A stretch of DNA of 40,668 nt from a virus (taxonomy: Duplodnaviria > Heunggongvirae > Uroviricota > Caudoviricetes), in the IMG/VR virus record IMGVR_UViG_2534682060_000017, positions 1 through 40,668 of that record, one strand, 5' to 3'. Position numbers and translations under genes: made by a program. Numbering within the stretch: position 1 is the stretch's first letter; each line of letters begins with the position of its first letter. Below the pieces are notes generated by a model that did no database searches, was not told the origin of the DNA, and worked only from the letters and a program-made list of their open reading frames with translations. This document shows, one piece after another, positions 10,377 to 40,668 of this stretch.

Positions 10377-10412
10377 GGTCATCAGCGGTCATCAGCGGTC
10401 ATCCGTGTCATC
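10377..10412. repeat. Tandem direct repeats of a 10-bp unit (GGTCATCAGC x2, then GGTCATCCGT, GTCATC)
   Basis: Read directly in the sequence about 240 bp upstream of the 834-aa gene; possible iteron-like protein-binding site. Confidence 0.6.
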
Positions 10413-10654
10413 TAGGGCTCTATCCTGACAGAAAACTATCCGGCACACTGCGTGAAAAATCAGAGTAAATGATACCTTCAGAGCATACAGGAGAAAGTCG
10501 ACGCTTTTCAAACGTGTGCCTTAAGAATTAGAGGATAATATAACAAAAATGAAATTTAGGATAACATCAGACTTGACATAGCTAGGTTATTGTAACTAAA
10601 TGCGGTAAAACTAATCAGAAAAATTTTCGTTATTTTTTATAGAGAGAATAATCT

Positions 10655-13159: not shown

Positions 13160-13162
13160 AAG

Positions 13163-13192
13163 ATGGGGCTAGTATGCCCCATGCTATTATCT
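13163..13192 (+). terminator. Hairpin immediately after the 834-aa gene stop
   Basis: ATGGGGC / GCCCCAT 7-bp stem with 6-nt loop followed by a U-rich stretch. Confidence 0.4.
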
Positions 13193-13879
13193 TACTAAAA
13201 TAAATTTGGAAGTGCTGTTACAATAGATAGAGGCTCATTGTCGAGTCTCTGTTTTAATTAGTTGGTTATTTTATGTTTATTTATTTCGATATCAGATAAA
13301 AAATCAATAAAGACAGCTTTGTTGCTAGTATTTAATTCTGTAGTAATATACGGATAGTTGTTTTCTGATATACCACATATCTTTAATTGTTGGTTTTTGT
13401 CTTAGTTGATTTAAATTCAATCAACCACTCCAGCAACCTAAATATTCCTCCAGTTCCAAACAATGAATATATGATCAGGAGCATAGCACTGCTCTTCATT
13501 AAAAATTTACACTTAGTTTTGAGAAAACTGCTTACGTTATCTTAACTCTGAATTTGTACATCTTAAGAAGTGCTAGTTATATTTAGTTGTTGTGTTCCAT
13601 GTTTTACAGAAAAATCAGAGAAACTGTACTCAATAGTTGCATTTCATCACTGATGAGACCGCCTTGTATTTATCAGGACTGGTGTACGTCCGATACAGAA
13701 AGTTGTCGTGCTGGTCCTCAAATGTGCGCTGGCTATTGCGGGTAATGGCAATTTATTGTCTTGCTATTGTCCTTATGGATCGCCTTTCTGATTGATTTTA
13801 TATTGGCGAGGTAACGGGAGTTAAGTACAATGGCTGCGGGTGCTTGAGGCTATCTGTCTCAGGCATGAACACCAAAGGC

Positions 13880-13960
13880 AGATAGAGAAAAGCCCCAGTT
13901 AACATTACGCGTCCTGCAAGACGCTTAACATTAATCTGAGGCTCAATCTATGAACGGCAA
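13880..13960 (-). ncRNA. Predicted Sok-like antisense RNA region (approximate)
   Basis: Inference from hok/sok architecture: antisense RNA normally overlaps the hok leader/upstream ORF start; possible minus-strand promoter TTGCCT-17-TAACCT near 13955-13985; boundaries uncertain. Confidence 0.25.
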
Positions 13961-14006
13961 ATCTAGGTTAGCCTCTTACGTGCCGAAAGGCAAGGAGAAG
14001 CAGGCT

Positions 14007-14162
14007 ATGAAGCAGCAAAAGGCGATGTTAATCGCCCTGATCGTCATCTGTTTAACCGTCATTGTGACGGCACTGGTAACGAGGAAAGACCTCTGCGAGG
14101 TACGAATCCGAACCGGCCAGACGGAGGTCGCTGTCTTCACAGCTTACGAACCTGAGGAGTAA
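14007..14162 (+). CDS. hok: Hok/Gef family type I toxin
   Basis: Product MKQQKAMLIALIVICLTVIVTALVTRKDLCEVRIRTGQTEVAVFTAYEPEE closely resembles Hok/Gef; in-frame upstream ATG at 13950 gives a mok-like extension; mRNA leader resembles the R1 hok leader. Confidence 0.8.
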   Translation: MKQQKAMLIALIVICLTVIVTALVTRKDLCEVRIRTGQTEVAVFTAYEPEE

Positions 14163-14230
14163 GAGACCTGGCGGGGGAGAAATCCCTCGCCACCTCTGAT
14201 GTGTCAGGCATCCTCAACGCACCCGCACTT

Positions 14231-14251
14231 AACCCGCTTCGGCGGGTTTTT
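14231..14251 (+). terminator. Rho-independent terminator (AACCCGC-TTCG-GCGGGTT + T-run)
   Basis: GC stem, tetraloop, 5 T; also serves as hok mRNA 3' end. Confidence 0.6.
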
Positions 14252-14377
14252 CGTCGCATTATGAGGTTGTAATTTTAGCTACCATTAGACTATCCTAAGG
14301 ATCTCAAACAGATCTATTTTGCATCAAATTTGGTGCATGGCTTTGCCAATAATCGGAAAACAAAAGGACTCATTAGT

Positions 14378-14557
14378 ATGAGCTGCCCACTCAAAAAACA
14401 CACGCGGTTGAGTATTCCGCCTCGCGATAAAAGCGTTGTGGCAGTCCCTCGCCCAGCGATTGATGAAAACTGCGCACATCGTGAACAAGTGAAAAATGCT
14501 TTTGATTTCGGTTTTTCTCGTTATGAGAAAGCCATGGAAGAACTTTCAAAAGTGTAA
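14378..14557 (+). CDS. Putative antitoxin-like small protein upstream of Doc-family toxin
   Basis: 59-aa ORF from ATG 14378 with AAGGA RBS; stop 18 nt before the Doc-like start; identity by position only. Confidence 0.4.
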   Translation: MSCPLKKHTRLSIPPRDKSVVAVPRPAIDENCAHREQVKNAFDFGFSRYEKAMEELSKV

Positions 14558-14575
14558 TGATGGGTATTGTGCTCT

Positions 14576-15061
14576 ATGGCTGAGATTGTTGAAGGAGTGC
14601 ATTACCTTACGGTTGATGATCTTGTTGAAATCAATCGTTCCCTAATTGAATTACAGACGCCAGATGAGCCCGTTGGTGTTCTGAGTCCAGATAACTTAAG
14701 TTCTTCTCAGGCCCGTCCCAGCATGGTTCGATGGTATGAACAGACTAATGACATGTTTGTACTGGCATCGGTATTGATTGAAAGTCTGATTCAGAATCAT
14801 CCGTTTGCTAATGCGAACAAACGAACAGCTATGATGGCTGGTTACGTCTTCTTGTTGTTGAATGGCTATGAGTTAACAGCACCAGGCGATGAAATCGTGG
14901 AAATGGCAGAGGGACTGGCCTGCAAAACCTATACTCGAGAAGATCTCGAGAACTGGTTGTGTTATTGGTCTCGCGCGTATGACAGCCGGGAATTATGTAA
15001 AACAGGCGCAACTATTGTTTTGTATGAAACTATCAAGCTTAGAATAGAACAGCAAAACTAA
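14576..15061 (+). CDS. doc: Fic/Doc family toxin (death-on-curing-like)
   Basis: Contains the Fic/Doc signature HPFANANKR (HxFx(D/N)(A/G)NKR) followed by MMAGYVFLLLNGYEL. Confidence 0.75.
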   Translation: MAEIVEGVHYLTVDDLVEINRSLIELQTPDEPVGVLSPDNLSSSQARPSMVRWYEQTNDMFVLASVLIESLIQNHPFANANKRTAMMAGYVFLLLNGYELTAPGDEIVEMAEGLACKTYTREDLENWLCYWSRAYDSRELCKTGATIVLYETIKLRIEQQN

Positions 15062-15077
15062 AGGCGCTTCCAATGAA

Positions 15078-15106
15078 AACCCGCTTCGGCGGGTTTTGTT
15101 TTTTCC
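15078..15106 (+). terminator. Rho-independent terminator, second copy of AACCCGCTTCGGCGGGTTTT
   Basis: Identical 20-nt hairpin to that at 14231-14251, followed by GTTTTTT. Confidence 0.6.
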
Positions 15107-15176
15107 GGGCATTCTGGTTTACAATCTGCACGCCAGCCTGAACAACTGGCACCTGCTGCGCCAGCAGAGAAAACAG

Positions 15177-20635: not shown

Positions 20636-20914
20636 GTGAATATTGATGATATTTCCAGGTGCTCCAGCTTGTTGCAGCGTATTGAGGATGTTAATGCTGA
20701 ACGAGCCAGGGCCTTTAGTCGTTTGACAGTTATATTTTCTACCCCTGATCGCCTTTCAGGAAAGAACATTGTTTTATTAAACAGTGATGCCATCCATAAG
20801 GTTTTTGAAGAGTTCATGGCTGCTAATTCAGAATTGCTGGCTCTTGTTGAGGAATACAACGAGATAGCCAGCCGTGTCGGTATGGATGAATTCAACGTCA
20901 TACTTCGTGGATAA
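20636..20914 (+). CDS. Hypothetical protein
   Basis: 92-aa ORF, GTG start with AGGAG RBS 4 nt upstream; followed by terminator hairpin. Confidence 0.35.
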   Translation: MNIDDISRCSSLLQRIEDVNAERARAFSRLTVIFSTPDRLSGKNIVLLNSDAIHKVFEEFMAANSELLALVEEYNEIASRVGMDEFNVILRG

Positions 20915-20937
20915 AAACATGCTTCATATTTTCTGTT

Positions 20938-20961
20938 AGCTCGCTACTGCGAGCTTTTTTG
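20938..20961 (+). terminator. Rho-independent terminator
   Basis: AGCTCGC-TACT-GCGAGCT stem-loop followed by T6. Confidence 0.5.
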
Positions 20962-21272
20962 TATCTGAGCCACATCAGGCGCACATCAAAAACACAGAGC
21001 CTTTCAGGGCGGGGAGGGGGCTCTTGCCGTTACACCGTAATGCAAAATAACAGCATACAAAAGGTATCGGTGATGGTTGTTATTGGTGTGGTTTATTAAA
21101 AAAGTGTAAGAAAATTATGAGCGTTGTAGTTGAACAAAATGGTGAAATTGTATGAGCTCGGCATAATGAAAGTTCTGAAGGTATTGCCTGCACACGCTGT
21201 GTAAAGGACGGCACGCAACTGCGACTCGTTGCCGTCCTTGAGGACGCATTTACTCAGGCTAAAGGCGAGTTG

Positions 21273-21608
21273 CTATGCTGGGATGACGGAAATGGAGTGC
21301 CGAATAGCTGCACTTCCGCCTCCTAAATCAATTGTAATATTCCAGTAACCTGAATGCGGTACATGAAGGTGGGCCGGTAATCTCTGAAAAAAACCGCCAC
21401 CACCGTGATGATGAAAGCTTCTTGCGTTGCGGTAGTTATTAAAGTTTGTATCTGTCATCAGCAAAATATTGCACTGATGAGAGCAGTCAACCACTACCGT
21501 ATCTCCTGCATTTAAATACATTCTTTTATGTAAAAACTGCATGTGATTTCCCTGAACAGAGGTAATCAGCCATCCCTCTTTCTCTATGATGAGCCAGCGT
21601 CCCACCAC
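21273..21608 (-). CDS. Hypothetical protein (uncertain)
   Basis: 111-aa minus-strand ORF between cargo and lysis genes; His/Gly-rich; no clear RBS. Confidence 0.3.
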   Translation of the reverse strand: MVGRWLIIEKEGWLITSVQGNHMQFLHKRMYLNAGDTVVVDCSHQCNILLMTDTNFNNYRNARSFHHHGGGGFFQRLPAHLHVPHSGYWNITIDLGGGSAAIRHSISVIPA

Positions 21609-21741
21609 TGGCGGGCTGAATGCTTAACATATCCAGGGTTCAGAAAACGTTAAACCCTGATAAATATCCATATCTTCAAACGTTAATAAAATGTCAGTTA
21701 CGGGGCCGCTGATGGTCCTTTTTATTTACAGGAGAATAAAT

Positions 21742-22131
21742 ATGTCTGAACCCTTATCCGGTTCCAGCACTGCTGTGGCGCTCGGCGGGGCGACGGTATT
21801 CGGGCTGTTTACCGGGACGGATTTCGGGATTGTGTTTGGCGCGTTTGCCGGGGCGTTGTTTGTGGCCACGATGCCACAGGTGATTTCTGTCTGGCGTGTG
21901 GCGGCGCATTTTCTGGTGTCGTTCATTGTTGGCGTGCTGGGGGCGGATGTCCTTGCGTCCTGGCTGGTCGAAAAATTGAATCTCCACAGCACATCTCTCG
22001 ACGCGCTTTGTGCGGTACTGGTATCGGTGGTGTCGGTGAAGATTCTCTCATTCATCCACCAGCAGGATATCGCATCGCTGGTATCCGGGCTGTTCTCCCG
22101 TCTGCGGGGTGGAGGCGGTAATGTTAAGTAA
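21742..22131 (+). CDS. Putative holin
   Basis: ATG 21742 with GGAG RBS; product has hydrophobic helices and charged C-terminus; directly upstream of endolysin. Confidence 0.6.
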   Translation: MSEPLSGSSTAVALGGATVFGLFTGTDFGIVFGAFAGALFVATMPQVISVWRVAAHFLVSFIVGVLGADVLASWLVEKLNLHSTSLDALCAVLVSVVSVKILSFIHQQDIASLVSGLFSRLRGGGGNVK

Positions 22132-22399
22132 CCTTCCCGGATTACTGAATGTGGTGTTAAGCACGGTTATCGTGCTGACGCTCTTTTTTTATCGTCGTGG
22201 TGAGTCGAGACATAAACCGCTGATGTCGTGGCTGGCCTGGCTGCTGATGCTGCTTTATGCCTTTGCGCCGCTTTGTTATCTGTGTGGTCGCTTTCCACCC
22301 GGTAACTGGCTGGTCGTCCTGATTAACCTGGTGTTCTGCGTGCTGGTGATACGAGCACGCGGGAACGTATCAAAAATCCTTGTATTACGAAGGCGCTGA
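22121..22399 (+). CDS. Second holin/antiholin-like membrane protein
   Basis: ATG 22121 with GGAGG RBS; 92 aa, three predicted TM helices, basic C-terminus; overlaps neighbours. Confidence 0.5.
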   Translation: MLSNLPGLLNVVLSTVIVLTLFFYRRGESRHKPLMSWLAWLLMLLYAFAPLCYLCGRFPPGNWLVVLINLVFCVLVIRARGNVSKILVLRRR

Positions 22400-22400
22400 T

Positions 22401-22946
22401 ATGAAGTCGAAAGATGAAATTTTTGACGAAATTCTGGGAAAAGAGGGCGGTTACGTCAATCACCCGGATGATAAAGGTGGTCCGACTAAATGGGGCATCA
22501 CTGAAAAAGTTGCCCGTGCACACGGTTATCAGGGCGATATGCGTGACCTGACGCGTGGGCAGGCGCTGGAAATACTCGAGGCGGACTACTGGTACGGACC
22601 ACGATTCGACCAGGTTGAGGACCTGTCTCCGGATATTGCCGCAGAGTTGTGCGATACGGGCGTGAACATGGGGCCAACTGTGGCGTCCAGAATGCTTCAG
22701 CGCTGGCTGAACGTTTTCAACCTGCGCGGGAAACTCTATCCGGATATGGATGCTGATGGACGCATCGGGCCGCGTACTCTTAATGCATTACGGGCATATC
22801 TGAAAAATCGCAGCAGGGATGGTGAACTGGTACTGGTGAAAGCCCTGAACTGTACGCAGGGCGAGCGTTATCTGGAGCTGGCAGAGAAACGCGAGGCCAA
22901 TGAGTCGTTTGTCTATGGCTGGATGAAAGAGCGCGTGGTGGTTTAA
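22401..22946 (+). CDS. Endolysin, glycoside hydrolase family 108-like with peptidoglycan-binding domain
   Basis: N-terminal EILGKEGGYVNHPDDKGGPTKWGIT signature of GH108 lysozymes; ATG overlaps upstream gene. Confidence 0.85.
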   Translation: MKSKDEIFDEILGKEGGYVNHPDDKGGPTKWGITEKVARAHGYQGDMRDLTRGQALEILEADYWYGPRFDQVEDLSPDIAAELCDTGVNMGPTVASRMLQRWLNVFNLRGKLYPDMDADGRIGPRTLNALRAYLKNRSRDGELVLVKALNCTQGERYLELAEKREANESFVYGWMKERVVV

Positions 22947-23040
22947 AAACTGACACTGAAGTGCTGAACACCCTCAACTCATGCAGGCTCTTTTCTGGGG
23001 CTACGATGAGCGAAAGTAAGGGGCATAGCATCAGATAGCA

Positions 23041-23080
23041 AAAACCCCGGCTGCGGTAACAGTCCGGGGTTTTCTGTTTC
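23041..23080 (+). terminator. Rho-independent terminator after lysis cassette
   Basis: AACCCCGG ... CCGGGGTT stem followed by TTTCTGTTTC. Confidence 0.55.
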
Positions 23081-23142
23081 TGGCCCTGGGTAAGGCAAAG
23101 GAGAACATGAGGAATTATAAACTAATTCTGTTGAGGTTGACT

Positions 23143-23289
23143 ATGAAAAACGGCCTTGAATTGAAAGCGCCTGTAACTGATGACATCAGCAGAGCGGTGG
23201 CTTTTGCCATTAAGTGGGTGGCGGTCGGTATCGCTGTGTCTCCGATGCTGTATGGGATGGCAAAATTGCTCATTGCTGTGAAATCGTAA
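23143..23289 (+). CDS. Small membrane peptide (49 aa)
   Basis: GAGG RBS 6 nt upstream; hydrophobic segment FAIKWVAVGIAVSPMLYGMAKLLIAV. Confidence 0.35.
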   Translation: MKNGLELKAPVTDDISRAVAFAIKWVAVGIAVSPMLYGMAKLLIAVKS

Positions 23290-23306
23290 GTGGGGCAGGG
23301 GTAAAT

Positions 23307-23441
23307 ATGTCAGATAGCATTATAAAACTGGCGCGAATTCTCTGTGTGGTTGTTGGCCTTTCATTTTCAGCAATGTTGGTTGCCATTTTCATTTCCACCG
23401 CCTGGCGAGTATTGAGCTTATCCGGATTGATTGGTGGATAG
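23307..23441 (+). CDS. Small membrane peptide (44 aa)
   Basis: AGGGGT RBS; single TM-like segment ILCVVVGLSFSAMLVAIFIS. Confidence 0.35.
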   Translation: MSDSIIKLARILCVVVGLSFSAMLVAIFISTAWRVLSLSGLIGG

Positions 23442-23445
23442 TGAG

Positions 23446-23628
23446 ATGAAGCGAAAACACTGGACACACAGAATGCCGCGAACGGCGGCGAAATGGGCAC
23501 TGGTAGCGATACTGGTGCCTTTTTTCCTGGTGGGATGCGTCAGCCTGGATAAGGCGCGCCAGCTTTTCGATACAGCTTCTCAGGTCTGTGAAATTGTCGA
23601 CGGTGTTCGGCAGTGTATGCAGAACTGA
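23446..23628 (+). CDS. Putative small lipoprotein (lipobox LVGC)
   Basis: Signal peptide ..WALVAILVPFFLVGC with lipobox cysteine, two further Cys in mature part; possible spanin or exclusion lipoprotein. Confidence 0.5.
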   Translation: MKRKHWTHRMPRTAAKWALVAILVPFFLVGCVSLDKARQLFDTASQVCEIVDGVRQCMQN

Positions 23629-23715
23629 TCGCCTGTAAGAGCAGAATATTGTTGAATCTAAATTTACTTTGAACAGTGGCCCGGATGGAAAGGGCATCTA
23701 AATAGGAGCAGAAAA

Positions 23716-23925
23716 ATGTTAACTGTAAAAGTCATGTCTCAAAATGGTGGGGAAGAGATCCATTGCGGGCGTAGCATTGGCTATCATCCTGAGCAGCGGA
23801 GTATTGCCGTATCGGGAAAGGATGGGAAAGTCATTCTGAAAGATGGAGATATTGCTTATGTAATGAACCAAAACGCTCAAATAATATCTGTTTATCGGCC
23901 CAATAATAGTCAGAAAAACATTTGA
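23716..23925 (+). CDS. Hypothetical small protein
   Basis: 69-aa ORF with AGGAG-like RBS. Confidence 0.4.
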   Translation: MLTVKVMSQNGGEEIHCGRSIGYHPEQRSIAVSGKDGKVILKDGDIAYVMNQNAQIISVYRPNNSQKNI

Positions 23926-24048
23926 ATTTCGCAAGGCCAAAGTTCAGTGGTGATCGTTATCAACTAATTGAAATAACAAGCTTATGTATGTGTAATTGGT
24001 GATATAGCATGTTAATGCTGAATATCAGCGTCAACATGGAGTTATACA

Positions 24049-24264
24049 ATGGTTTTTAAACACTATTACGTGAACAAAAATGCTCAGAGCAATGGCGATC
24101 ATGAGGTGCATGCTGAGGAATGTTCATATCTTCCTGCTGTAGCTAACCGCGATTACCTTGGTTACTATAGTGATTGTTCTTCGGCGGTAACAGAGGCAAA
24201 GGCCAAAGGATATTCCCGGGTGAATGGTTGCTATTGGTGTGCCAATAAGTGCCACACGTCTTAA
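24049..24264 (+). CDS. Hypothetical Cys/His-rich small protein
   Basis: 71-aa ORF with HEVHAEEC and CYWCANKCH motifs suggesting metal binding; followed by terminator. Confidence 0.4.
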   Translation: MVFKHYYVNKNAQSNGDHEVHAEECSYLPAVANRDYLGYYSDCSSAVTEAKAKGYSRVNGCYWCANKCHTS

Positions 24265-24284
24265 TCAATTGTCAATAAACCATA

Positions 24285-24306
24285 AAGGCCGCTCTGCGGC
24301 CTTTTT
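24285..24306 (+). terminator. Rho-independent terminator
   Basis: AAGGCCGC-TCT-GCGGCCTT followed by T5. Confidence 0.55.
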
Positions 24307-24373
24307 CATGTTAAAAAAGATTGCGGCATTACAGCAGCCCTTCACTCTAAGGGGCTGCTGTAATGTGAGAAAT

Positions 24374-24406
24374 AAAAAACCGGCCCAGCTACACAGAACC
24401 GGCCGG
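24374..24406 (-). terminator. Minus-strand terminator-like hairpin
   Basis: CCGGCC ... GGCCGG stem preceded on plus strand by A6 (T-run on minus strand). Confidence 0.4.
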
Positions 24407-24495
24407 CGAAGACCGCCAATACCACCCATGCATTGATGCAACATACTAATGACAATAGCCGCTATTGATGTAAATGCAATGTTATGCATCGACGA

Positions 24496-24537
24496 AAATA
24501 AAAAACCGGCAGGGGAAATCCATTGAAGACTTGCCGG
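24496..24537 (-). terminator. Minus-strand terminator-like hairpin
   Basis: CCGGCA ... TGCCGG stem preceded on plus strand by AAATAAAAAA. Confidence 0.4.
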
Positions 24538-24699
24538 TGGCAAAAGTTGCCAATGCTTTTATAACCGTAGTCACAGAGTTACGAAGTGCAACACCGAATG
24601 CTGCTGGTATATGGATGAATGGCGTTTCAATGATTTTCATCAATTTATTCATCAGCAATGGTGATAATCACTCTCATTTGTGCGGGTCCTTCCGGTGGG

Positions 24700-24780
24700 G
24701 TGGCCTGCCACGGGGCGGGAGCGTCGCGGAAAAAGGCTAGTTTTTGCATTTCCATGGCGGCGGCAGTATGTTTGGTAATT
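24700..24780. other. Candidate cos site region (cosN/cosB-like)
   Basis: GC-rich CGGGGCGGGAGCGTCGCGG followed by AT-rich tract about 190 bp upstream of the Nu1-like start, mirroring lambda cos spacing; recalled from lambda, not aligned. Confidence 0.3.
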
Positions 24781-24908
24781 TATTGATAATTAAAAGCTAT
24801 TTCTCTTTTCACCTGTACAATATTTTTTTCTCCCTGTCATTAGACCAGTTTGCAATTAATTGAAATATATAAATAAACATGATTTTCACCTGCCAGATGG
24901 AGTTGCTT

Positions 24909-25436
24909 ATGTCAAATGTGAGCGGGATCGGTGATGCTTATTACTGGAGTGTTTTTAAAATCGCCGAGGCCTTTGGGCTTCACCGGGACACAGTAAAAAA
25001 ACGGCTCCTCGCGGCCAACACTCCTGTGGCTGCGACTGTCAGGGGGAACCCCGTTTACGCCCTGCAGCATGTCGGGCCCGCCCTGTTTAGTGTGAAGCAT
25101 GAGGCAGCAGACTCTGTTCATGATCCATCCCGTATGGAGCCGAAAGAGAGAAAGGACTGGTACCAGTCTGAAAATGAAAGGATCAAGCTGGAAAAGGAGC
25201 AGCGAAAACTCATCCCAGTTGATGAAGTAGTCATCGTCTATTCGTCCATGAGAAAGGCTGTCGTCCAGGTTCTGGAGACAATTCCGGATGTTCTTGAACG
25301 CGATTGCGCCCTGACTCCTCAGGCCGTCGGCGTTGTACAGCAGGCCATTGATGACCTGCGATACACTCTTCAGGAAAAATCCTACGAGGCTTGTGCTGCT
25401 GAATTAATTCCTGATGAGGAAGGAGAGAGTCTCTAG
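24909..25436 (+). CDS. Terminase small subunit (Nu1-like)
   Basis: ATG 24909 with GGAG RBS; N-terminal HTH-like region and acidic C-terminus as in lambda Nu1; directly upstream of large terminase. Confidence 0.8.
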   Translation: MSNVSGIGDAYYWSVFKIAEAFGLHRDTVKKRLLAANTPVAATVRGNPVYALQHVGPALFSVKHEAADSVHDPSRMEPKERKDWYQSENERIKLEKEQRKLIPVDEVVIVYSSMRKAVVQVLETIPDVLERDCALTPQAVGVVQQAIDDLRYTLQEKSYEACAAELIPDEEGESL

Positions 25437-25444
25437 GAGGAATA

Positions 25445-27544
25445 ATGGGTTTTTCATCAGCCCGAAATTTGGGAAGGGACATATCGGCAGGATTTTCCCC
25501 ACCACGTCGCATGCCGATTTCGGAGGCTGTTAAAAAATTCATGCGTGTTCCCAAGGGGGCTGGTAACTCGGTGCCATGGGATCCTGAACTGACACCCTAC
25601 ATCATTGAGCCCATGAACTGCCTGGCATCGCGTGAATACGATGCGGTGATTTTTGTTGGTCCTGCGCGAACAGGGAAGACCATTGGTCTGATCGATGGAT
25701 GGATTGTCTATACCATCGTTTGCGATCCTTCGGACATGCTCGTTGTGCAGATGACCGAAGATAAGGCCCGCGAGCATTCGAAAAAGCGCCTCGACAGAAC
25801 GTTCAGAAGCAGTGCGGCGGTAAAGAAAAGAATGAGTCCACGTCGTAACGACAATAATGTCCATGATAAGACGTTCAGGGATGGCTCGTTCCTTAAAATT
25901 GGTTGGCCCTCGGTCAACATTATGTCGTCGTCGGATTACCGGTTTGTCGCCTTAACCGATTACGACCGTTTTCCGGAGAATATCGACAGCGAGGGTGATG
26001 GTTTCTCCCTGGCCTCAAAACGTACCACCACATTTATGTCCGCCGGGATGACTCTGGTGGAGAGCTCGCCGGGACGTGACATCTGCGACAGCAAATGGCG
26101 ACGTAAGTCGCCTCATGAAGCGCCACCGACGACTGGTATTCTTTCCCTTTACAATCGTGGTGACCGCCGCCGCTGGTACTGGCCATGTCCGCACTGCGGT
26201 GAATATTTTCAGCCAGCTATGGATGCCATGACCGGCTACCGTAATGAACCGGATCCCTTTAAAGCCAGTGAGGCGGCGTATCTACTTTGCCCGCACTGCA
26301 GCGGCATTATCACTGCGGAGAAAAAGCGTGAGCTCAATAGTGCAGGAGTCTGGTTGCGTGAAGGTCAGGTCATTGATCGTAACGGCAACGTTTCCGGTGA
26401 ACCGCGCCGCTCCCGTATCGCCAGTTTCTGGATGGAAGGGCCAGCTGCTGCGTATCAGACCTGGGCGCAACTGGTTTACAAATTACTGACTGCAGAACAG
26501 GAGTATGAAGCGACAGGAAGCGAAGAAACACTCAGGGCGGTTATCAACACCGACTGGGGATTGCCTTATCTTCCTCGTGCCAGCATGGAGCAACGAAAAA
26601 GTGAACTGCTTGAGCAGCGGGCAGAGCCAGTTCCTTCCCGCAGTGTGCCGGATGGCGTTAATTTCCTTGTGGCGACAGTGGATGTGCAGGCGGGACGTCA
26701 TCGCCGTTTTGTGGTTCAGGTAACGGGCTATGGCAGCCGTGGCGAACGCTGGATTATTGATCGTTACAACATCACGCAGTCATTGCGCAGTGACTGCGAC
26801 GGGGAGAGCCAGCGAATTGATCCGGCCAGCTATCCGGAAGACTGGGATGTCCTGCTGACGGATGTTTTTCATAAAAGCTGGCCGCTGGCCTCCGATCCTT
26901 CTCAACAAATGCGACTGATGGCAATGGCGGTGGACTCCGGCGGTGAAGACGGGGTCACTGATAATGCCTATAAATTCTGGCGTCGTTGCCGTCGTGATGG
27001 CCTTGGTAAACGTATTTACCTGTTTAAGGGCGACAGCATCCGGCGCGCAAAACTGATCAGCCGTACATTCCCTGATAACACCGGACGAACGGGCCGCCGG
27101 GCGCAGGCCGCAGGTGATGTGCCGCTCTGGCTTCTTCAGACGGATGCCCTGAAAGACCGGGTGAATAACGCGTTATGGCGTGACTCGCCAGGTCCAGGCT
27201 ATGTGCATTTCCCTGACTGGCTGGGGAGCTGGTTTTACGACGAACTGACGTATGAAGAGCGGAGCAGTGACGGGAAATGGAGTAAGCCGGGTCGCGGTGC
27301 CAACGAAGCTTTTGACCTGATGGTGTATGCCGAGGCTCTGGTCATTCTGCATGGATACGAAAAGATCCGCTGGCCGGATGCACCGGAGTGGGCGAGCCGG
27401 GAAACCTGGCTGGAGTGTGTCCAGGACAGTACCGAACCGTCATCCTCACCGGAACCGGTATCCACGCCTGTTAAAAAACAAAAACGGAAGAAAACAGTAA
27501 CTGACGATGTTAACCCCTGGCTGACTTCCGGAGGATGGTTATGA
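25445..27544 (+). CDS. Terminase large subunit (lambda gpA-like)
   Basis: 699-aa ORF with AGGAGG RBS; size and position match gpA-family terminases; N-terminal GPARTGKT Walker A-like motif. Confidence 0.9.
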   Translation: MGFSSARNLGRDISAGFSPPRRMPISEAVKKFMRVPKGAGNSVPWDPELTPYIIEPMNCLASREYDAVIFVGPARTGKTIGLIDGWIVYTIVCDPSDMLVVQMTEDKAREHSKKRLDRTFRSSAAVKKRMSPRRNDNNVHDKTFRDGSFLKIGWPSVNIMSSSDYRFVALTDYDRFPENIDSEGDGFSLASKRTTTFMSAGMTLVESSPGRDICDSKWRRKSPHEAPPTTGILSLYNRGDRRRWYWPCPHCGEYFQPAMDAMTGYRNEPDPFKASEAAYLLCPHCSGIITAEKKRELNSAGVWLREGQVIDRNGNVSGEPRRSRIASFWMEGPAAAYQTWAQLVYKLLTAEQEYEATGSEETLRAVINTDWGLPYLPRASMEQRKSELLEQRAEPVPSRSVPDGVNFLVATVDVQAGRHRRFVVQVTGYGSRGERWIIDRYNITQSLRSDCDGESQRIDPASYPEDWDVLLTDVFHKSWPLASDPSQQMRLMAMAVDSGGEDGVTDNAYKFWRRCRRDGLGKRIYLFKGDSIRRAKLISRTFPDNTGRTGRRAQAAGDVPLWLLQTDALKDRVNNALWRDSPGPGYVHFPDWLGSWFYDELTYEERSSDGKWSKPGRGANEAFDLMVYAEALVILHGYEKIRWPDAPEWASRETWLECVQDSTEPSSSPEPVSTPVKKQKRKKTVTDDVNPWLTSGGWL

Positions 27545-27753
27545 ACCAGAATGATATCGAAGCCATGATTCAGCGTTATATGGAAGCTGAAATGGCGGTG
27601 CTGGACGGAAAATCCGTCACCTTTAATGGTCAGCAGATGACCATGGAAAACTTATCTGAGATCCGGCAGGGACGGCAGGAGTGGGAGCGCCGCCTTGCGG
27701 CTCTGATTACACGACGACGGGGGCATCCCGGGTACCGGCTGGCGAGGTTCTGA
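27541..27753 (+). CDS. Head-tail joining protein (gpW-like)
   Basis: 70-aa product between terminase and portal; ends ..RRRGHPGYRLARF, similar to lambda gpW C-terminus; ATGA overlap with portal start. Confidence 0.7.
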   Translation: MNQNDIEAMIQRYMEAEMAVLDGKSVTFNGQQMTMENLSEIRQGRQEWERRLAALITRRRGHPGYRLARF

Positions 27754-29261
27754 TGGCAATTCTTGATGATGTGATTGGCGTTTTTTCACCAGGATGGAAA
27801 GCGGCAAGGCTGCGTTCCCGTGCGGTGATCCAGGCTTATGAGGCCGTAAAAACGACGCGGACACACAAAGCCCGACGGGAGAACCGAACTGCCGACCAGT
27901 TAAGCCAGTACGGGGCCGTGTCGTTACGTGAGCAGGCCCGTTACCTTGATAACAACCACGATCTGGTTATTGGTGTATTTGACAAGCTGGAAGAACGGGT
28001 GGTGGGGAAAAACGGGATTATTGTCGAGCCACATCCGGTATTACGCAATGGGGCCATTGCCCGTGACCTGGCTGCGGAGATTCGCACCCGATGGAGTGAA
28101 TGGTCTGTCAGCCCGGAAGTCACCGGGCAGTTTACCCGTCCGATGCTGGAACGTCTGATGCTTCGTACCTGGCTGCGCGATGGTGAGGTGTTTGCCCAGA
28201 TGGTTTCCGGGCGCATAAATAGCCTGACGCCTTCTGCCGGTGTTCATTTCTGGCTGGAGGCGCTCGAGCCGGACTTTATTCCCATGACCAGTGATGAGAG
28301 CAACAGGCTGAATCAGGGCGTGTTTGTTGATGACTGGGGGCGTCCCGAAAAATATCTGGTGTATAAAAGCCGTCCCGTATCCGGGCGGCAGATGGAAACC
28401 AAAGAAGTGGATGCAGAGCGAATGCTGCATCTTAAATTTGTTCGCCGTCTGCACCAGATGCGCGGGACGTCTTTATTGTCCGGTGTGCTGATCCGCCTCA
28501 GTGCCCTGAAAGAGTATGAAGATTCTGAGCTGACTGCAGCAAGGATCGCCGCTGCTCTGGGGATGTACATCCGCAAAGGCGACGGGCAGAGCTATGAAAC
28601 GGATGGTAATGGCAGCAAGGAGAATGAACGCGAGCTTACCATTCAGCCTGGCATTATTTACGACGATCTGAAACCCGGCGAAGAAATCGGAATGGTGAAG
28701 TCGGATCGCCCCAATCCTAACCTTGAAACTTTTCGTAATGGTCAGTTGCGTGCCGTGGCGGCGGGCAGTCGTCTGAGTTTTTCCAGTACGGCACGCAACT
28801 ATAACGGCACTTACAGCGCCCAGCGTCAGGAGCTGGTTGAATCCACTGATGGCTACCTGATCCTGCAGGACTGGTTTATTGGTGCCGTCACCCGTCCGAT
28901 GTACCGTGCCTGGCTGAAACAGGCTGTGGCATCCGGTGTTATCAGGCTACCCCGCGATCTTGACCGTTCTTCACTGTATACCGCGGTGTATTCCGGACCG
29001 GTGATGCCGTGGATTGACCCTGTTAAGGAGGCTGAGGCCTGGAAAATCCAGATTCGTGGTGGAGCGGCGACAGAATCAGACTGGGTACGTGCTGGTGGTC
29101 GTAATCCGGATGATGTCAAACGTCGGCGCAAGGCCGAAATTGATGAAAACCGCAAGCTGGATCTGGTATTTGATACCGATCCGGCCAGTGATAAAGGAGG
29201 CAGCAGTGCCGCAACGAAACGACAGGAGCCGCAGCACACCGACGACCAGTCCGAAGAATAA
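27753..29261 (+). CDS. Portal protein (lambda gpB-like)
   Basis: 502-aa ORF after W; size, position and acidic C-terminus consistent with lambda-type portal. Confidence 0.9.
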   Translation: MAILDDVIGVFSPGWKAARLRSRAVIQAYEAVKTTRTHKARRENRTADQLSQYGAVSLREQARYLDNNHDLVIGVFDKLEERVVGKNGIIVEPHPVLRNGAIARDLAAEIRTRWSEWSVSPEVTGQFTRPMLERLMLRTWLRDGEVFAQMVSGRINSLTPSAGVHFWLEALEPDFIPMTSDESNRLNQGVFVDDWGRPEKYLVYKSRPVSGRQMETKEVDAERMLHLKFVRRLHQMRGTSLLSGVLIRLSALKEYEDSELTAARIAAALGMYIRKGDGQSYETDGNGSKENERELTIQPGIIYDDLKPGEEIGMVKSDRPNPNLETFRNGQLRAVAAGSRLSFSSTARNYNGTYSAQRQELVESTDGYLILQDWFIGAVTRPMYRAWLKQAVASGVIRLPRDLDRSSLYTAVYSGPVMPWIDPVKEAEAWKIQIRGGAATESDWVRAGGRNPDDVKRRRKAEIDENRKLDLVFDTDPASDKGGSSAATKRQEPQHTDDQSEE

Positions 29262-29274
29262 TTCCTGGTTCAGG

Positions 29275-31233
29275 ATGCAGGCTGGTCACCAGAGTGACGC
29301 GGATATTTATATTTATGACGAGATTGGTTTCTGGGGTGTTACAGCGAAGCAGTTTATCAGTGATCTGAATGCACTGGGCGATATCACCCACATTAATCTC
29401 CATATTAATTCACCGGGTGGCGATGTCTTTGAAGGCATCGCCATTTTTAATGCGCTGAAAACACATGGTGCGTCCATTACCGTTTATGTCGACGGTGTGG
29501 CGGCGTCAATGGCGTCGGTCATTGCGATGGTGGGAAACCCGGTCATTATGCCGGAAAACACCTTCATGATGATTCATAAACCATTTGGCTTTACGGGCGG
29601 TGATGCGGAGGACATGCGCACCTATGCCGACCTGCTCGATAAAGTTGAGGCGGTTCTGTTACCCGCTTATGCACAGAAAACCGGGAAAACCACCGATGAA
29701 ATTGCTGCCATGCTGGCGGATGAGACCTGGATGTCCGGTGCCGAATGTCTGGCACAGGGATTTGCTGATCAGGTAACGCCAGCCGTTAAGGCAATGGCAT
29801 GTATTCAGTCAAAACGTACAGAGGAATTTAAAAAGATGCCGGAATCCATTCGAAACATGATTACTCCGCCACGCAACAGTGCTCCACGCGTACAGGATGA
29901 TGAACCTGCAGTCTCCCGGACGCCAGTGCAGGCAGCAGCACCCGTGGTGGATGAAAACAGTATCCGTGCGCAGGTACTGGCAGAGCAAAAAGCGCGTGTA
30001 AACGGTATTAATGATCTGTTTGCCATGTTTGGCGGGCGCTATCAGACGCTGCAGGCTCAGTGTCTTGCCGATCCTGAATGTTCGCTGGAGCAGGCCCGCG
30101 AAAAGTTGTTGAACGAGATGGGGCGCGAGTCCACGCCATCCAATAAAAATACCCCGGCTCATATTTATGCCGGTAACGGTAATTTTGTGGGGGACGGGAT
30201 CCGCCAGGCGCTGATGGCGCGTGCCGGATTTGAAAAAACCGAACGTGATAATGTCTACAACGGGATGACCCTGCGTGAATATGCCCGTATGTCACTGACT
30301 GAACGGGGTATTGGGGTTTCCGGTTATAACCCGATGCAGATGGTCGGTGCGGCGTTCACACACAGTACGTCTGACTTCGGTAATATTCTGCTGGATGTTG
30401 CGAACAAAGCCATTCTGCAGGGCTGGGAAGATGCCCCTGAAACCTATGAACAGTGGACGCGGAAAGGTCAGTTGTCTGATTTTAAAATTGCCCATCGTGT
30501 GGGTATGGGGGGCTTCAGTGCTCTGCGTCAGGTGCGTGAAGGGGCGGAATATAAATACGTCACCACCGGAGATAAACAGGCCACTATTGCACTGGCGACC
30601 TATGGTGAGCTGTTCAGTATCACCCGTCAGGCCATTATCAATGATGATCTGAATATGCTGACCGATGTCCCGATGAAACTGGGCCGTGCGGCGAAATCCA
30701 CTATTGCCGATCTGGTTTATGCCATTCTGACGTCTAACCCGAAAATCTCCACAGATAATGTAAGTCTGTTCGATAAAGCGAAACATGCAAACGTACTGGA
30801 GAGCGCTGCAATGGACGTGGCATCGCTGGATAAAGCCCGCCAGTTGATGCGCGTTCAGAAAGAGGGGGAGCGTCATCTGAATATTCGTCCTGCGTTCGTA
30901 CTGGTACCGACGGCGATGGAGTCTGTTGCTAACCAGGTCATTCACTCCTCAAGTGTCAAGGGGGCTGACATTAACGCCGGTATTATTAACCCGGTGAAAG
31001 ATTTTGCGACCGTTATTGCAGAGCCTCGTCTTGATGATAACAGCCAGACCACCTTCTACCTGGCTGCGTCAAAAGGCTCCGATACGATTGAAGTGGCTTA
31101 TCTCAACGGTGTGGATACGCCATATATTGATCAGATGGAGGGCTTCAGTGTGGATGGCGTGACAACGAAAGTGCGTATTGACGCCGGTGTCGCGCCAGTT
31201 GATCACCGCGGTCTGGTGAAATGTACGGCGTAA
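29275..31233 (+). CDS. Fused prohead protease (ClpP/S49-like) - scaffold linker - major capsid protein
   Basis: N-terminal region IYIYDEIGFWG...INSPGGDV...ASMASVIAM matches ClpP-like serine protease; C-terminal 300+ aa capsid-like; one continuous frame; strong terminator after stop. Confidence 0.8.
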   Translation: MQAGHQSDADIYIYDEIGFWGVTAKQFISDLNALGDITHINLHINSPGGDVFEGIAIFNALKTHGASITVYVDGVAASMASVIAMVGNPVIMPENTFMMIHKPFGFTGGDAEDMRTYADLLDKVEAVLLPAYAQKTGKTTDEIAAMLADETWMSGAECLAQGFADQVTPAVKAMACIQSKRTEEFKKMPESIRNMITPPRNSAPRVQDDEPAVSRTPVQAAAPVVDENSIRAQVLAEQKARVNGINDLFAMFGGRYQTLQAQCLADPECSLEQAREKLLNEMGRESTPSNKNTPAHIYAGNGNFVGDGIRQALMARAGFEKTERDNVYNGMTLREYARMSLTERGIGVSGYNPMQMVGAAFTHSTSDFGNILLDVANKAILQGWEDAPETYEQWTRKGQLSDFKIAHRVGMGGFSALRQVREGAEYKYVTTGDKQATIALATYGELFSITRQAIINDDLNMLTDVPMKLGRAAKSTIADLVYAILTSNPKISTDNVSLFDKAKHANVLESAAMDVASLDKARQLMRVQKEGERHLNIRPAFVLVPTAMESVANQVIHSSSVKGADINAGIINPVKDFATVIAEPRLDDNSQTTFYLAASKGSDTIEVAYLNGVDTPYIDQMEGFSVDGVTTKVRIDAGVAPVDHRGLVKCTA

Positions 31234-31256
31234 ACGTCGCAGACAACAACTCTGAT

Positions 31257-31277
31257 GGCCCGTAAGGGCTTTTTTTG
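31257..31277 (+). terminator. Rho-independent terminator after capsid gene
   Basis: GCCC-GTAA-GGGC followed by T7. Confidence 0.55.
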
Positions 31278-31319
31278 TACCTGAAATCAGCCCCTGAACG
31301 GGGCTGTGCGGAGACAGTT

Positions 31320-31643
31320 ATGGCAAAGAATTTTGTAGAAGAAGGAAAAACGGTGGCGATTGTTGCCAGTGCAGCCATCAGCAGCGGAGATCTGGTGCAG
31401 GTGGGTGATGTTTTTGCGGTGGCGCTGACCGATATTCCACAGGGTGAAACAGGCGACGGCCTGACCGAAGGTGTGTTTATGCTGCCTAAGCTGAAAACGG
31501 ATGACATGAAAACGGGTAAGAAGGTTTATCTGAAGTCCGGAAAAGTTCAGCTGACTAACAGCGGCTCTGATCCGCTGGTCGGGGTTGTCTGGGCAGATGC
31601 CGGAACCAGTGCAGAAGAAGTGCCGGTAAAACTCAATGTCTGA
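31320..31643 (+). CDS. DUF2190-like head protein (decoration/stabilisation candidate)
   Basis: 107-aa ORF with GGAGA RBS in the Fi-equivalent position after the capsid gene. Confidence 0.5.
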   Translation: MAKNFVEEGKTVAIVASAAISSGDLVQVGDVFAVALTDIPQGETGDGLTEGVFMLPKLKTDDMKTGKKVYLKSGKVQLTNSGSDPLVGVVWADAGTSAEEVPVKLNV

Positions 31644-31911
31644 TCCCTTTTCCCGGCTGGCAGCGCGTATGGATGCGATCACGGTCAGAAAGATGGGAAA
31701 GACAGCCTCGATTAATGATGTCGATATGACTGTGATCCCGGGAGAAACACTGGCAGAGCTGAATGCTCTGTCCGGACCTGCGGTATCTCTGGTGGTGTTT
31801 TCTTCGGGATACCGCCCACGGCGCGGGGATCGCGTTGTTTATGACAGACAACAATGGACGGTCACACGGCATGAACGCTTTAACGGTAAGCCAATGATCT
31901 TTATTGAGTAA
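31636..31911 (+). CDS. Head-tail connector protein (lambda FII-like)
   Basis: 91-aa ORF overlapping upstream stop; pattern incl. RRGD resembles lambda FII; position before Z. Confidence 0.6.
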   Translation: MSDPFSRLAARMDAITVRKMGKTASINDVDMTVIPGETLAELNALSGPAVSLVVFSSGYRPRRGDRVVYDRQQWTVTRHERFNGKPMIFIE

Positions 31912-31922
31912 AGAGGTGTGGG

Positions 31923-32501
31923 ATGAAGGGGCTTGAGAATGCCATCCGCAATCTGAACAGCCTTGATACCCGTATGGTGCCACAGGCCAGCGCATGGGCG
32001 ATAAACCGTGTGGCACAGAAAGCGGTCTCGGTTGCCACCCGGCAGGTTGCCGGGAATACCGTTGCGGGAGATAACCAGGTGAAAGGGATCCCCCTGAAAC
32101 TGGTACGTCAGCGTGTCCGGGTGTTTAAAGCCAGTCCGTCAGGAAAAATGACGGCCAGGATCCGCGTTAACCGGGGCAATCTGCCCGCCATTAAGCTGGG
32201 GACAGCCCGGGTCAGACTGACCCGGCGTGGTGGAAAACTGCAGTACCGTGGCAGTGTGCTGAAGGTGGGTAAATATCTTTTCCGGGATGCGTTTATTCAG
32301 CAACTGGCGAATGGTCGCTGGCATGTGATGCGGCGTATTGATGGCAAAAATCGTTACCCCATTGATGTGGTGAAAATCCCGCTGTCCGGACCGCTGACAC
32401 AGGCATTTGAAGATGCCCGCGACCGCATCATTGCTGCAGAAATGCCGAAACAGCTGGGGTATGCACTGAAACAACAACTGAGGTTATGGCTGACCCGATG
32501 A
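31923..32501 (+). CDS. Z: Minor tail protein Z
   Basis: 192 aa, same length as lambda gpZ; strong similarity by recall (..NGRWHVMRRIDGKNRYPIDVVKIP..). Confidence 0.85.
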   Translation: MKGLENAIRNLNSLDTRMVPQASAWAINRVAQKAVSVATRQVAGNTVAGDNQVKGIPLKLVRQRVRVFKASPSGKMTARIRVNRGNLPAIKLGTARVRLTRRGGKLQYRGSVLKVGKYLFRDAFIQQLANGRWHVMRRIDGKNRYPIDVVKIPLSGPLTQAFEDARDRIIAAEMPKQLGYALKQQLRLWLTR

Positions 32502-32899
32502 ACCGACATACACAAATCCGCCAGGTCGTACTGGCACGCCTTCGGGAACAGTGTGGAGACAGCGCCACGTTTTTTGACGGGCTTCCGGCATTTGTTGATG
32601 CGCAGGAACTGCCTGCCGTGGCGGTGTGGCTGAGTGATGCTCAGTACACCGGAAAAATGACGGATGAAGATGACTGGCAGGCTGTTCTGCATATTGCTGT
32701 CTTCATCCGGGCACAGGCACCGGATTCAGAGCTGGATATGTGGATGGAGAGCACCATTTTCCCGGCCCTGAATGATGTACCGGCACTTTCCGGACTCATC
32801 GACACCCTGATCCCACTCGGTTTTAACTATCAACGTGATAATGAGATGGCCACCTGGGCGATGGCGGAAATCACGTACCAGATCACGTACACGAATTAA
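32498..32899 (+). CDS. U: Tail terminator protein U
   Basis: Start overlaps Z stop (ATGA); product aligns with lambda gpU (..ATFFDG.P..VD..ELPAVAVWLSDAQYTG.. PDSELDMWMES..). Confidence 0.85.
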   Translation: MNRHTQIRQVVLARLREQCGDSATFFDGLPAFVDAQELPAVAVWLSDAQYTGKMTDEDDWQAVLHIAVFIRAQAPDSELDMWMESTIFPALNDVPALSGLIDTLIPLGFNYQRDNEMATWAMAEITYQITYTN

Positions 32900-32909
32900 G
32901 GAGGTGGTA

Positions 32910-33653
32910 ATGACCACACCAAATCCACTGGCAAAAACGAAAGGTGCGGGAACGACGTTCTGGATGTATACCGGCAAGGGCGATGCGTTTGCGAACCCTT
33001 TATCGGACACTGACTGGCTGCGTCTTGCGATGGTGAAGGATCTGCAACCTGGCGAAATGACCGCTGATGCAGAAGATGACACTTATCTCGATGATGAAGA
33101 TGCAGACTGGAAAACGACAACCCAGGGGCAGAAATCCGTTGGTGATACTTCGGCGACGCTGGCCTGGCGTCCGGGTGACAGCGGGCAGAAAAAACTGGTT
33201 CAGTTGTTCGACTCCGGTGAAGTCTGCGCGTTTCGTATCAAATATCCCAACGGTACTGTTGATGTTTTCCGTGGCTGGCTGAGTTCACTGGGTAAAACCA
33301 TTGCCTCAAAAGACGTGATGACCCGCACCGTGAAAATCAGCGGTGTGGGGCGTCCATATCTGGCAGAGGAGGGCACTGAAACCGTGGGCGTTACCGGGCT
33401 GACGGTGGCACCGGCATCCGCCAGTGTCAATGTGGGAGCAACCACCACGCTGACCTTTACAGTAAAACCTGACGGAGCCAGTGACAAAGCGATCAGTGTG
33501 CATTCGACAGATCCACAGACAGCCACTGTGACCCTGAACGGACTTGTGGCCACGGTGAAAGGCGTGAAGCAGGGCAGTGTCAGCATTGTGGGCATGACTT
33601 CTGACGGCGAGTTTGTGGCAGTGGCTACGGTGGCTGTCAGCGCCGCAGGTTAA
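32910..33653 (+). CDS. V: Major tail protein V with C-terminal Ig-like domain
   Basis: AAGGAGG RBS; strong similarity to lambda gpV (KGAGTT.W.Y.G.GD..ANPLSD.DW.RLA.VKDL.PGE.TA...DD.YLDDEDADW..). Confidence 0.9.
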   Translation: MTTPNPLAKTKGAGTTFWMYTGKGDAFANPLSDTDWLRLAMVKDLQPGEMTADAEDDTYLDDEDADWKTTTQGQKSVGDTSATLAWRPGDSGQKKLVQLFDSGEVCAFRIKYPNGTVDVFRGWLSSLGKTIASKDVMTRTVKISGVGRPYLAEEGTETVGVTGLTVAPASASVNVGATTTLTFTVKPDGASDKAISVHSTDPQTATVTLNGLVATVKGVKQGSVSIVGMTSDGEFVAVATVAVSAAG

Positions 33654-33673
33654 CAGGACGATACTCATCATTT

Positions 33674-33697
33674 GCCCCGGTTATCCGGGGCTTTTTT
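33674..33697 (+). terminator. Hairpin terminator between V and G
   Basis: GCCCCGG-TTAT-CCGGGGC followed by T6. Confidence 0.5.
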
Positions 33698-33713
33698 GCA
33701 GGTGGAGAACATG

Positions 33714-34100
33714 ATGTTTCTGAAACAGGGCACGTTTAATTATGAAAAACAGTCCGTGGTGCTCAGTGAGCTGTCCGGGTTGCAGAGAATTGAATATCTG
33801 GCTTTTCTTCAGCAGCGAACGGCAAAGTTTGATGCCGAAGAGGGAGAACTGCCGGAGGCTGAACGACGGATTGCTTTTCTGCGGATGGGGATGGATATCA
33901 ATGCCTGGCTGGTTTCCCGCTCACTGTGGAATGCGGAACAGTCTCAGGATGTTGAGACGCTTTACGCATCCGTTATTACAACATGGTCGTATGATGCCCT
34001 GGGAGCGGGGGCGGAGATGGTTCTGTCGCTGAGCGGTATGGGAGCCATTGAGAATGCCGGGGATTTTGAGCATGAGGCGCTGACGCCGGAAAAGTCCTGA
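33714..34100 (+). CDS. G: Tail assembly chaperone G
   Basis: Starts MFLKQG.. as lambda gpG starts MFLK..; GGTGGAG RBS; stop at 34098-34100. Confidence 0.8.
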   Translation: MFLKQGTFNYEKQSVVLSELSGLQRIEYLAFLQQRTAKFDAEEGELPEAERRIAFLRMGMDINAWLVSRSLWNAEQSQDVETLYASVITTWSYDALGAGAEMVLSLSGMGAIENAGDFEHEALTPEKS

Positions 34101-39829: not shown

Positions 39830-39857
39830 AAACCGCCTCCGGGCGGTTTTGTCGTTT
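39830..39857 (+). terminator. Hairpin with T-rich tail between I and J
   Basis: AACCGCC-TCCG-GGCGGTT followed by TTGTCGTTT. Confidence 0.45.
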
Positions 39858-39871
39858 ATGGAGCATGACGA

Positions 39872-40668
39872 ATGGGTAAAGGCAGCAGTAAGGGGCATAC
39901 CCCGCGCGAAGCAAAGGACAACCTGAAGTCCACGCAGTTGCTGAGTGTGATCGATGCCATCAGCGAAGGGCCGGTTGAAGGTCCGGTGGATGGATTAAAA
40001 AGCGTGCTGCTGAACAGTACACCTGTGCTGGACAGTGAGGGGAATACCAATATCTCCGGCGTCACGGTGGTGTTCCGGGCCGGTGAGCAGGAGCAGACAC
40101 CGCCGGAGGGATTTGAATCCTCCGGCTCCGAGACGGTGCTCGGTACGGAAGTGAAATACGACACGCCGATCACCCGGACCATCACGTCGGCAAACATCGA
40201 CCGTCTGCGCTTTACCTTCGGTGTGCAGGCACTGGTGGAAACCACCTCAAAGGGTGACAGGAATCCGTCGGAAGTCCGCCTGCTGGTTCAGATACGACGT
40301 AACGGTGGCTGGGTGACGGAAAAAGCATCACCATTAAGGGCAAAACCACCTCGCAGTATCTGGCCTCGGTGGTGGTGGGTAACCTGCCGCCGCGCCCGTT
40401 CAACATCCGGATGCGCAGGATGACGCCGGACAGCACCACAGACCAGCTGCAGAACAAAACGCTCTGGTCGTCATACACTGAAATCATCGATGTGAAACAG
40501 TGCTACCCGAACACGGCACTGGTTGGCGTACAGGTGGACTCGGAACAGTTCGGCAGTCAGCAGGTGAGCCGTAATTATCATCTGCGCGGGCGCATTCTGC
40601 AGGTGCCGTCGAACTATAACCCGCAGACGCGGCAATACAGCGGTATCTGGGACGGAACGTTTAAACCG
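39872..40668 (+). pseudogene. J: Host specificity/tail tip protein J, 5' part; reading frame interrupted by apparent 1-nt deletion near 40322-40326; continues off window end
   Basis: N-terminal 150 aa match lambda gpJ (MGKGSSKGHTPREAKDNLKSTQLLSVIDAISEGP..); after GGWVTEK the frame runs to a stop at 40423, while the -1 frame from about 40327 encodes DITIKGKTTSQYLASVV.GNLPPRPFNIRMRRMTPD.. matching the gpJ continuation to the window edge. Confidence 0.7.

Follow-up and report, generated by a model that had tools for sequence, protein, structure and literature searches.

A single-base gap in the tail gene J of a lambda-like prophage, close to a contig end of the Escherichia coli W26 draft genome, and its probable origin as a consensus error

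The stretch of DNA analysed here (the window, 40,668 nt) corresponds to the last 40.7 kb of contig AGIA01000090.1 (85,297 bp) in the 2012 draft assembly of E. coli W26 (GCA_000258225.1), and its last position, 40668, is contig position 85,296 of 85,297. Its first position coincides exactly with the stop codon of the integrase gene on the minus strand, as if the stretch had been excised as a predicted provirus. The accession AGIA00000000 belongs to E. coli W26, which is reported to be an enteric strain of bovine faecal origin (Kim et al., J Bacteriol 2012). A later study places it in phylogroup B1, with serotype O45:H14 and a genome in 165 contigs. The element is a Rac/lambda-like prophage that, gene J aside, looks intact: it carries genes for an exonuclease, dicB, an immunity region of the racR/ydaS/ydaT type and Q, as well as late modules that comprise a head module with a ClpP-capsid fusion protein and a lambda-type tail. 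In relatives, the prophage lies between yccA and tRNA-Ser/hyaA.

Gene J closes the tail operon in the order M-L-K-I-J, as seen from the called genes and the RefSeq annotation of near-identical relatives, and thereby follows its M, L, K and I homologues as in lambda. Its start codon is preceded by GGAG at 39860-39863, and the open reading frame that begins there (Table 1) encodes 183 residues, deposited as EID66004.1 ('host specificity protein J [Escherichia coli W26]'). Residues 1-151 match lambda gpJ and the final 32 (ASPLRAKPPRSIWPRWWWVTCRRARSTSGCAG) do not, which bears out the preliminary description of a gpJ match over about 150 codons followed by an out-of-frame run to a stop. In the 60-nt spacer between I and J, at 39830-39857, a T-rich stretch comes after a GC-rich hairpin (AAACCGCC TCCG GGCGGTTT TGTCGTTT), an arrangement that looks like an intrinsic terminator.

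Table 1. Positions in the window of gene J, its frame break and other features named in the text.
Feature	Position	Strand	Details
Integrase gene	1-1020	-	
834-aa ORF	10655-13159	+	
Truncated J ORF	39872..40423	+	ATG at 39872, TGA at 40421-40423; 151 gpJ codons and 32 out-of-frame codons
W26-private A>G	40296	+	CAA>CGA, Q142R; 30 nt upstream of the deletion
Both-frames-open stretch (J start frame and continuation frame)	40303..40420	+	From stop positions in the three frames
A5 tract	40320..40324	+	Same length as in lambda, UTAK-5 and W12-1
Deletion junction G|C	40325..40326	+	From alignments; A of codon 152 (GAC, Asp) absent
J continuation, -1 frame	40327..40668	+	gpJ residues 153-266; open up to the last base of the window

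The expected continuation of gpJ is encoded in the -1 frame, where the preliminary description had placed it: this frame is open from 40303 through the end of the window, and its product from 40327 (ITIKGKTTSQYLASVVVGNLPP...; ITIKGKTTSQYLASVVVGNLPPRPFNIRMRR...) covers gpJ residues 153-266. To restore the protein, a change of frame would need to take place within the stretch over which both frames are open. With one A added back, J yields a 266-residue product that differs from lambda gpJ (PDB 8IYK/9E7M) by only four substitutions (E about 1e-173) and in which the Pfam family FNIII-A_GpJ (PF24801) is recognised at residues 86-207 with 143.7 bits, against a cut-off of 27, so that the frameshift at codon 152 falls inside this domain. 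In contrast to lambda gpJ, J of W26 is not a single ORF of about 1,130-1,160 codons with a C-terminal receptor-binding domain; it meets a stop after 183 residues, and the continuation in the other frame leaves the contig at codon 266, with the remaining roughly 870-900 codons off the contig. It had been noted earlier that J stays open to the edge of the window, and it does so to the last base, but this edge is in reality the end of the source contig, which lies one base further on. As the contig itself stops within J, 343 nt past the deletion, the gene is cut by a contig break and not by the choice of window.

The position of the missing base was determined from alignments of the window to four sequences: those of lambda, of two near-identical E. 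coli prophages (in UTAK-5 and W12-1) and of MFDS1019527. Against the first three, intact J reads GGAAAAAG[A]CATC and the window reads GGAAAAAG-CATC (full site GGAAAAAGACATC in lambda, UTAK-5 and W12-1, and GGAAAAGGACATC in MFDS1019527). The lost base is thus a singleton A between G and C, after the G that ends the A5 run, and the placement of the gap between 40325 and 40326 is unambiguous. The alignment confirms that the frame is broken at codon 152 and moves the proposed place by one to two bases: one base has indeed been lost and the site of loss adjoins the A5 run, as had been suggested, but the run itself still counts five A. Neither a homopolymer sequencing error at this run, as first proposed, nor contraction of a phase-variable tract can therefore account for the change, since W26 and the aligned intact genes all have A5. 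The continuation had also been read as DITIKGK; the Asp codon is in fact destroyed, and the -1 frame carries AGC (Ser) at codon 152, followed by ITIKGK.

To judge the quality of the deposited sequence, the window was compared with the corresponding regions of W12-1 (25.5 kb and 6.6 kb), UTAK-5 (14.2 kb and 11.3 kb) and EC42405 (8.5 kb and 4.7 kb). Over roughly 45 kb of summed alignment length against these relatives, no indel in coding sequence other than the gap in J can be attributed to the window, the remaining indels lying in divergent non-coding stretches or being homopolymer differences at which the W26 ORF is intact. The ORFs that contain long homopolymers in W26 (T7, G8) are intact as well and, with no other coding indel, this indicates that the assembly is generally accurate. 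The nearest relative, UTAK-5, differs at only five positions in the last 14,241 nt, three of which are private to W26 (30322, 40296 and 40325/6), UTAK-5 and W12-1 agreeing there against W26. Two of the three private differences, the gap and an A>G substitution at 40296, fall in the final 373 nt and lie 30 nt apart, a clustering for which the probability of at least two of three is 0.002, calculated post hoc. The G at 40296 was found in none of the collections searched (complete E. coli genomes, IMG/VR and GTDB representatives), whether with an intact GAC or otherwise. With this G, CGACGT can pair along its whole length with ACGTCG at 40184-40189, perhaps by chance.

The deletion was sought in other sequences. 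Of the 7,779 J places in 4,223 complete E. coli genomes, none perfectly matches an 82-mer that spans the site, and the best matches differ from it by exactly the gap and the G at 40296. Exact-pattern scans of the GTDB representatives and of IMG/VR likewise found no J copy with the gap, and at least 120 J copies in IMG/VR have an intact site; five IMG/VR matches to a 17-mer are chance matches to unrelated DNA. The exact 183-residue product matched a single record, which is that on AGIA01000090.1, and it occurs in no Logan or other independent assembly. A pseudogene shared by a lineage is ruled out by the lack of any copy in the complete E. coli genomes, the GTDB representatives and IMG/VR. In the same three collections, the lesion does not recur in any assembly made independently from W26 or from its clonal relatives; a mutation private to the strain would also look like this, so that absence from other assemblies is not decisive.

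On this evidence, the gap is probably a consensus error at the contig end. J is a multi-copy gene in E. coli, with a median of three places per genome and copies that are 95-99% identical over their first 800 nt, and it is because of these near-identical copies that the contig breaks in J and that thin or mixed coverage is to be expected there. Thin or ambiguous coverage at the end of the contig may have led to an erroneous consensus in J, and both the gap and the G at 40296 could stem from low read depth or from a mixture of reads of paralogous J copies; the J gene of the real phage would then be intact. What moves the balance towards an error is that the gap lies 343 nt from a contig end in a draft of 2012, beside a second private change: a substitution and an indel, 30 nt apart, both within a read length of the end and both unique in the databases searched, in an operon otherwise free of lesions, are the clustered private differences at a low-confidence place that an artefact is expected to leave. 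Against an error stand the otherwise accurate assembly, the nature of the gap, which is not a change in homopolymer length, the classic platform artefact, and the common defectiveness of sister prophages, among which real lesions are hence frequent.

The same points lend weight to a genuine, recent inactivating mutation private to the strain, which would truncate gpJ at residue 151 and which we regard as a serious possibility, if somewhat short of an even chance. The gap is present in the deposited sequence, in an assembly that is clean elsewhere; a private change is expected to be unique in the databases; and a break inside FNIII-A_GpJ would, judging from the domain match, leave a product that cannot be functional. 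Its clustering with a second private change, both within 373 nt of the contig end and in a repeated gene, speaks against such a mutation, however, and no second isolate carries it. The other late genes align with those of the relatives without indels and so give no other sign of prophage decay, which means that a genuine lesion would necessarily be very recent.

Truncated J proteins similar to that of W26 are found in the databases, and these turned out to be misleading. Clustered at 90% identity, the 183-residue protein falls into a group of 52 truncated J members of about 155-294 residues, many of them with 183, and most members have a tail with EK-T-SPLR where W26 has EK-A-SPLR. We followed the EK-T-SPLR lesion to the DNA level in three assemblies, all encoding the same member, P0011 (GCA_045618665.1, GCA_020556405.1 and GCA_020556445.1). 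All three carry GGAAAAGACATC, a true contraction of A5 to A4 at about position 4449 of the locus that gives the tail EKTSPLRAK..., and in them many further homopolymer indels break up H, L, K and J; we take them to be noisy long-read assemblies, the platform being presumed. While W26 shares with them the codon neighbourhood, the shift to the -1 frame and the length of 183 residues, it keeps A5, loses the next A and shows no other indels. A recurrent natural frameshift at codon 152, as the cluster might have suggested, was accordingly rejected, the three assemblies opened being error-rich and of the A5>A4 type, and we read the EK-T-SPLR members as a different lesion and as probable artefacts. 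The A5 run is thus an artefact-prone spot in noisy long-read assemblies and a source of spurious 183-residue J fragments, and is not where the event in W26 took place.

Outside W26, a true J with the same gap was met only once, in a 1,640-bp human-gut metagenome contig (NODE-9312) with a coverage of 1.4x; the other two of the three metagenome matches are chance similarities in unrelated DNA. The J allele of this contig differs from that of W26 upstream of the gap (CAG CGT AAT against CGA CGT AAC), and the same deletion on a different allele would be in line with a mutational hot spot at GAAAAAG[A]CATC, at which recurrent loss of the A would explain why the gap is present on two J alleles. The missing A lies about 75 nt from the contig end (position 1565), though, and is accompanied by the insertion of a G at 1485, 79 nt upstream, which creates a stop; together with two odd transversions, both indels fall in the last 155 nt of the contig. 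We read these changes as read-end errors, with a decayed gene as the alternative, and the case suggests that low-coverage read ends are able to yield the missing-A change. As finished genomes, with about 7,800 J copies, offer no instance and no direct or inverted quasi-repeat lies nearby to template the change, a hot spot is very unlikely indeed, and a templated, quasi-palindromic mutation can be dismissed for want of any nearby repeat able to template AAAGCATC.

The least probable of the readings weighed here, to the point of being scarcely credible, is a leaky frameshift, by a -1 ribosomal slip on G_GAA_AAA_G or by slippage of RNA polymerase on the A run. Five A are too short for appreciable transcriptional slippage. 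In the ribosomal case, tRNA-Lys would re-pair from AAA at 40322-40324 to 40321-40323 and translation would go on through AGC-ATC-ACC, so that a -1 shift at this place would restore the gpJ frame at the price of a single change, D152S. tRNA-Lys(UUU) is known to be shift-prone (PMC4066793), and the site resembles the phage's own slip site for the G-T chaperone, G_GAA_AAG, at 34088-34094. It does not, however, form a canonical X_XXY_YYZ heptamer in the zero frame: in G_GAA_AAA only the A-site tRNA-Lys re-pairs cognately, which under the rules in PMC4066793 makes it in effect an A_AAA tetramer. Bare Z_ZZN tetramers shift at rates near background in E. coli (about 0.15% without a stimulator, against 0.11%), and among the six stimulator-responsive tetramers A_AAA is the weakest (PMC4066793). 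As to a stimulatory structure, the 100 nt downstream fold no better than shuffled sequences (minimum free energy -34.1 kcal/mol against a shuffle mean of -31.8; z = -0.65), and the fold starts about 20 nt after the site. The homologues of J are all single ORFs, and intact homologues share the flanks and need no shift, so that slippage has never been selected; nor is a two-frame arrangement conserved, since no J copy in the complete E. coli genomes matches the sequence with the deletion and all sampled top matches keep the extra base. The earlier suggestion of a slippage-prone site thus finds neither a split homologue, nor a downstream structure, nor a motif beyond the tetramer. Taken together, it is very unlikely that slippage supplies some full-length J (D152S) and leaves the gene partly functional, or that GAAAAAG[A]CATC is a hot spot at which the A is lost recurrently.

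The programmed -1 frameshift between G and T of lambda (G_GGA_AAG) offers a comparison. Both sites have a Lys codon after A in a purine-rich tract. The two overlapping ORFs of G-T are conserved in all relatives, whereas J is split in one assembly only; its A-site codon is AAA and not AAG, and there is no evidence of selection on it. In the window, the G gene ends with CCG GAA AAG TCC TGA (34086-34100), and the -1 frame enters the T homologue (VLMREMQFVMRLARE; lambda VFDGELSFALKLAREM); from the sequence, the G-T frameshift site of the W26 phage appears to be G_GAA_AAG, as opposed to G_GGA_AAG in lambda.

If the gap is a consensus error, EID66004.1, with its 183 residues, is an annotation error. 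The consequences of a genuine gap follow from the role of gpJ, which starts the assembly of the lambda tail, so that a protein cut at residue 151 would give tail-less particles. The missing parts would be the hub domains and the C-terminal, receptor-binding part of gpJ, and the prophage could excise, replicate, lyse the cell and fill heads, yet build no tails, rescue being possible only by a J from a co-resident lambdoid prophage, either supplied or recombined; this would be a routine form of prophage decay. Either outcome, an error in a draft assembly or a routine knockout, is ordinary and is already reflected in EID66004.1. For genome scans, it means that frameshifts in multi-copy phage genes which lie no more than a read length from the end of a contig need the reads before they are counted as biology.

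The prophages used for comparison carry changes of their own. MFDS1019527 has one of the frameshifted gpJ pseudogenes that PGAP has annotated in E. coli prophages of RefSeq (ACEZCG_RS12755), which resembles J of W26 in that a single-base frameshift affects the N-terminal part of J in a lambdoid prophage, and differs from it in that a G is lost at the equivalent of window position 40077, the lesion of W26 being unique to W26; in its locus (L002, 3001-6479), J and the side tail fibre gene are both frameshifted. W12-1 has an internal stop in gene L (L004, 31821-32519), and UTAK-5 a satellite insert of roughly 13 kb in the terminase gene (L006, about 20650-33770), with an integrase, a primase and IS66.

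A segment of 5.2 kb in the window (9911-15128), which the nearest relatives, W12-1 and UTAK-5, lack, encodes an 834-residue protein (Table 1). This protein has no Pfam domain, matches phrog_14719, of unknown function, over its full length and shows a weak PADLOC match to a methyl-directed restriction enzyme (E = 2.9e-4). In EC42405, a T8 tract, which is T7 in W26 (about 11633), splits the ORF into two coding sequences, and the region upstream (10286-10400) holds a tract of G8 versus G10 (10286) and a tandem duplication of 10 nt, GGTCATCAGC (10377). The ORF may be a variable gene of accessory or defensive function; alternatively, these changes may be sequencing differences. Directly after it, at about 13950-15061, lie a hokD-type type I toxin gene and an ORF of the Doc (death-on-curing) family (14567-15061), identified by homology to the annotation of EC42405, and the relatives without the segment carry a ParDE pair instead.
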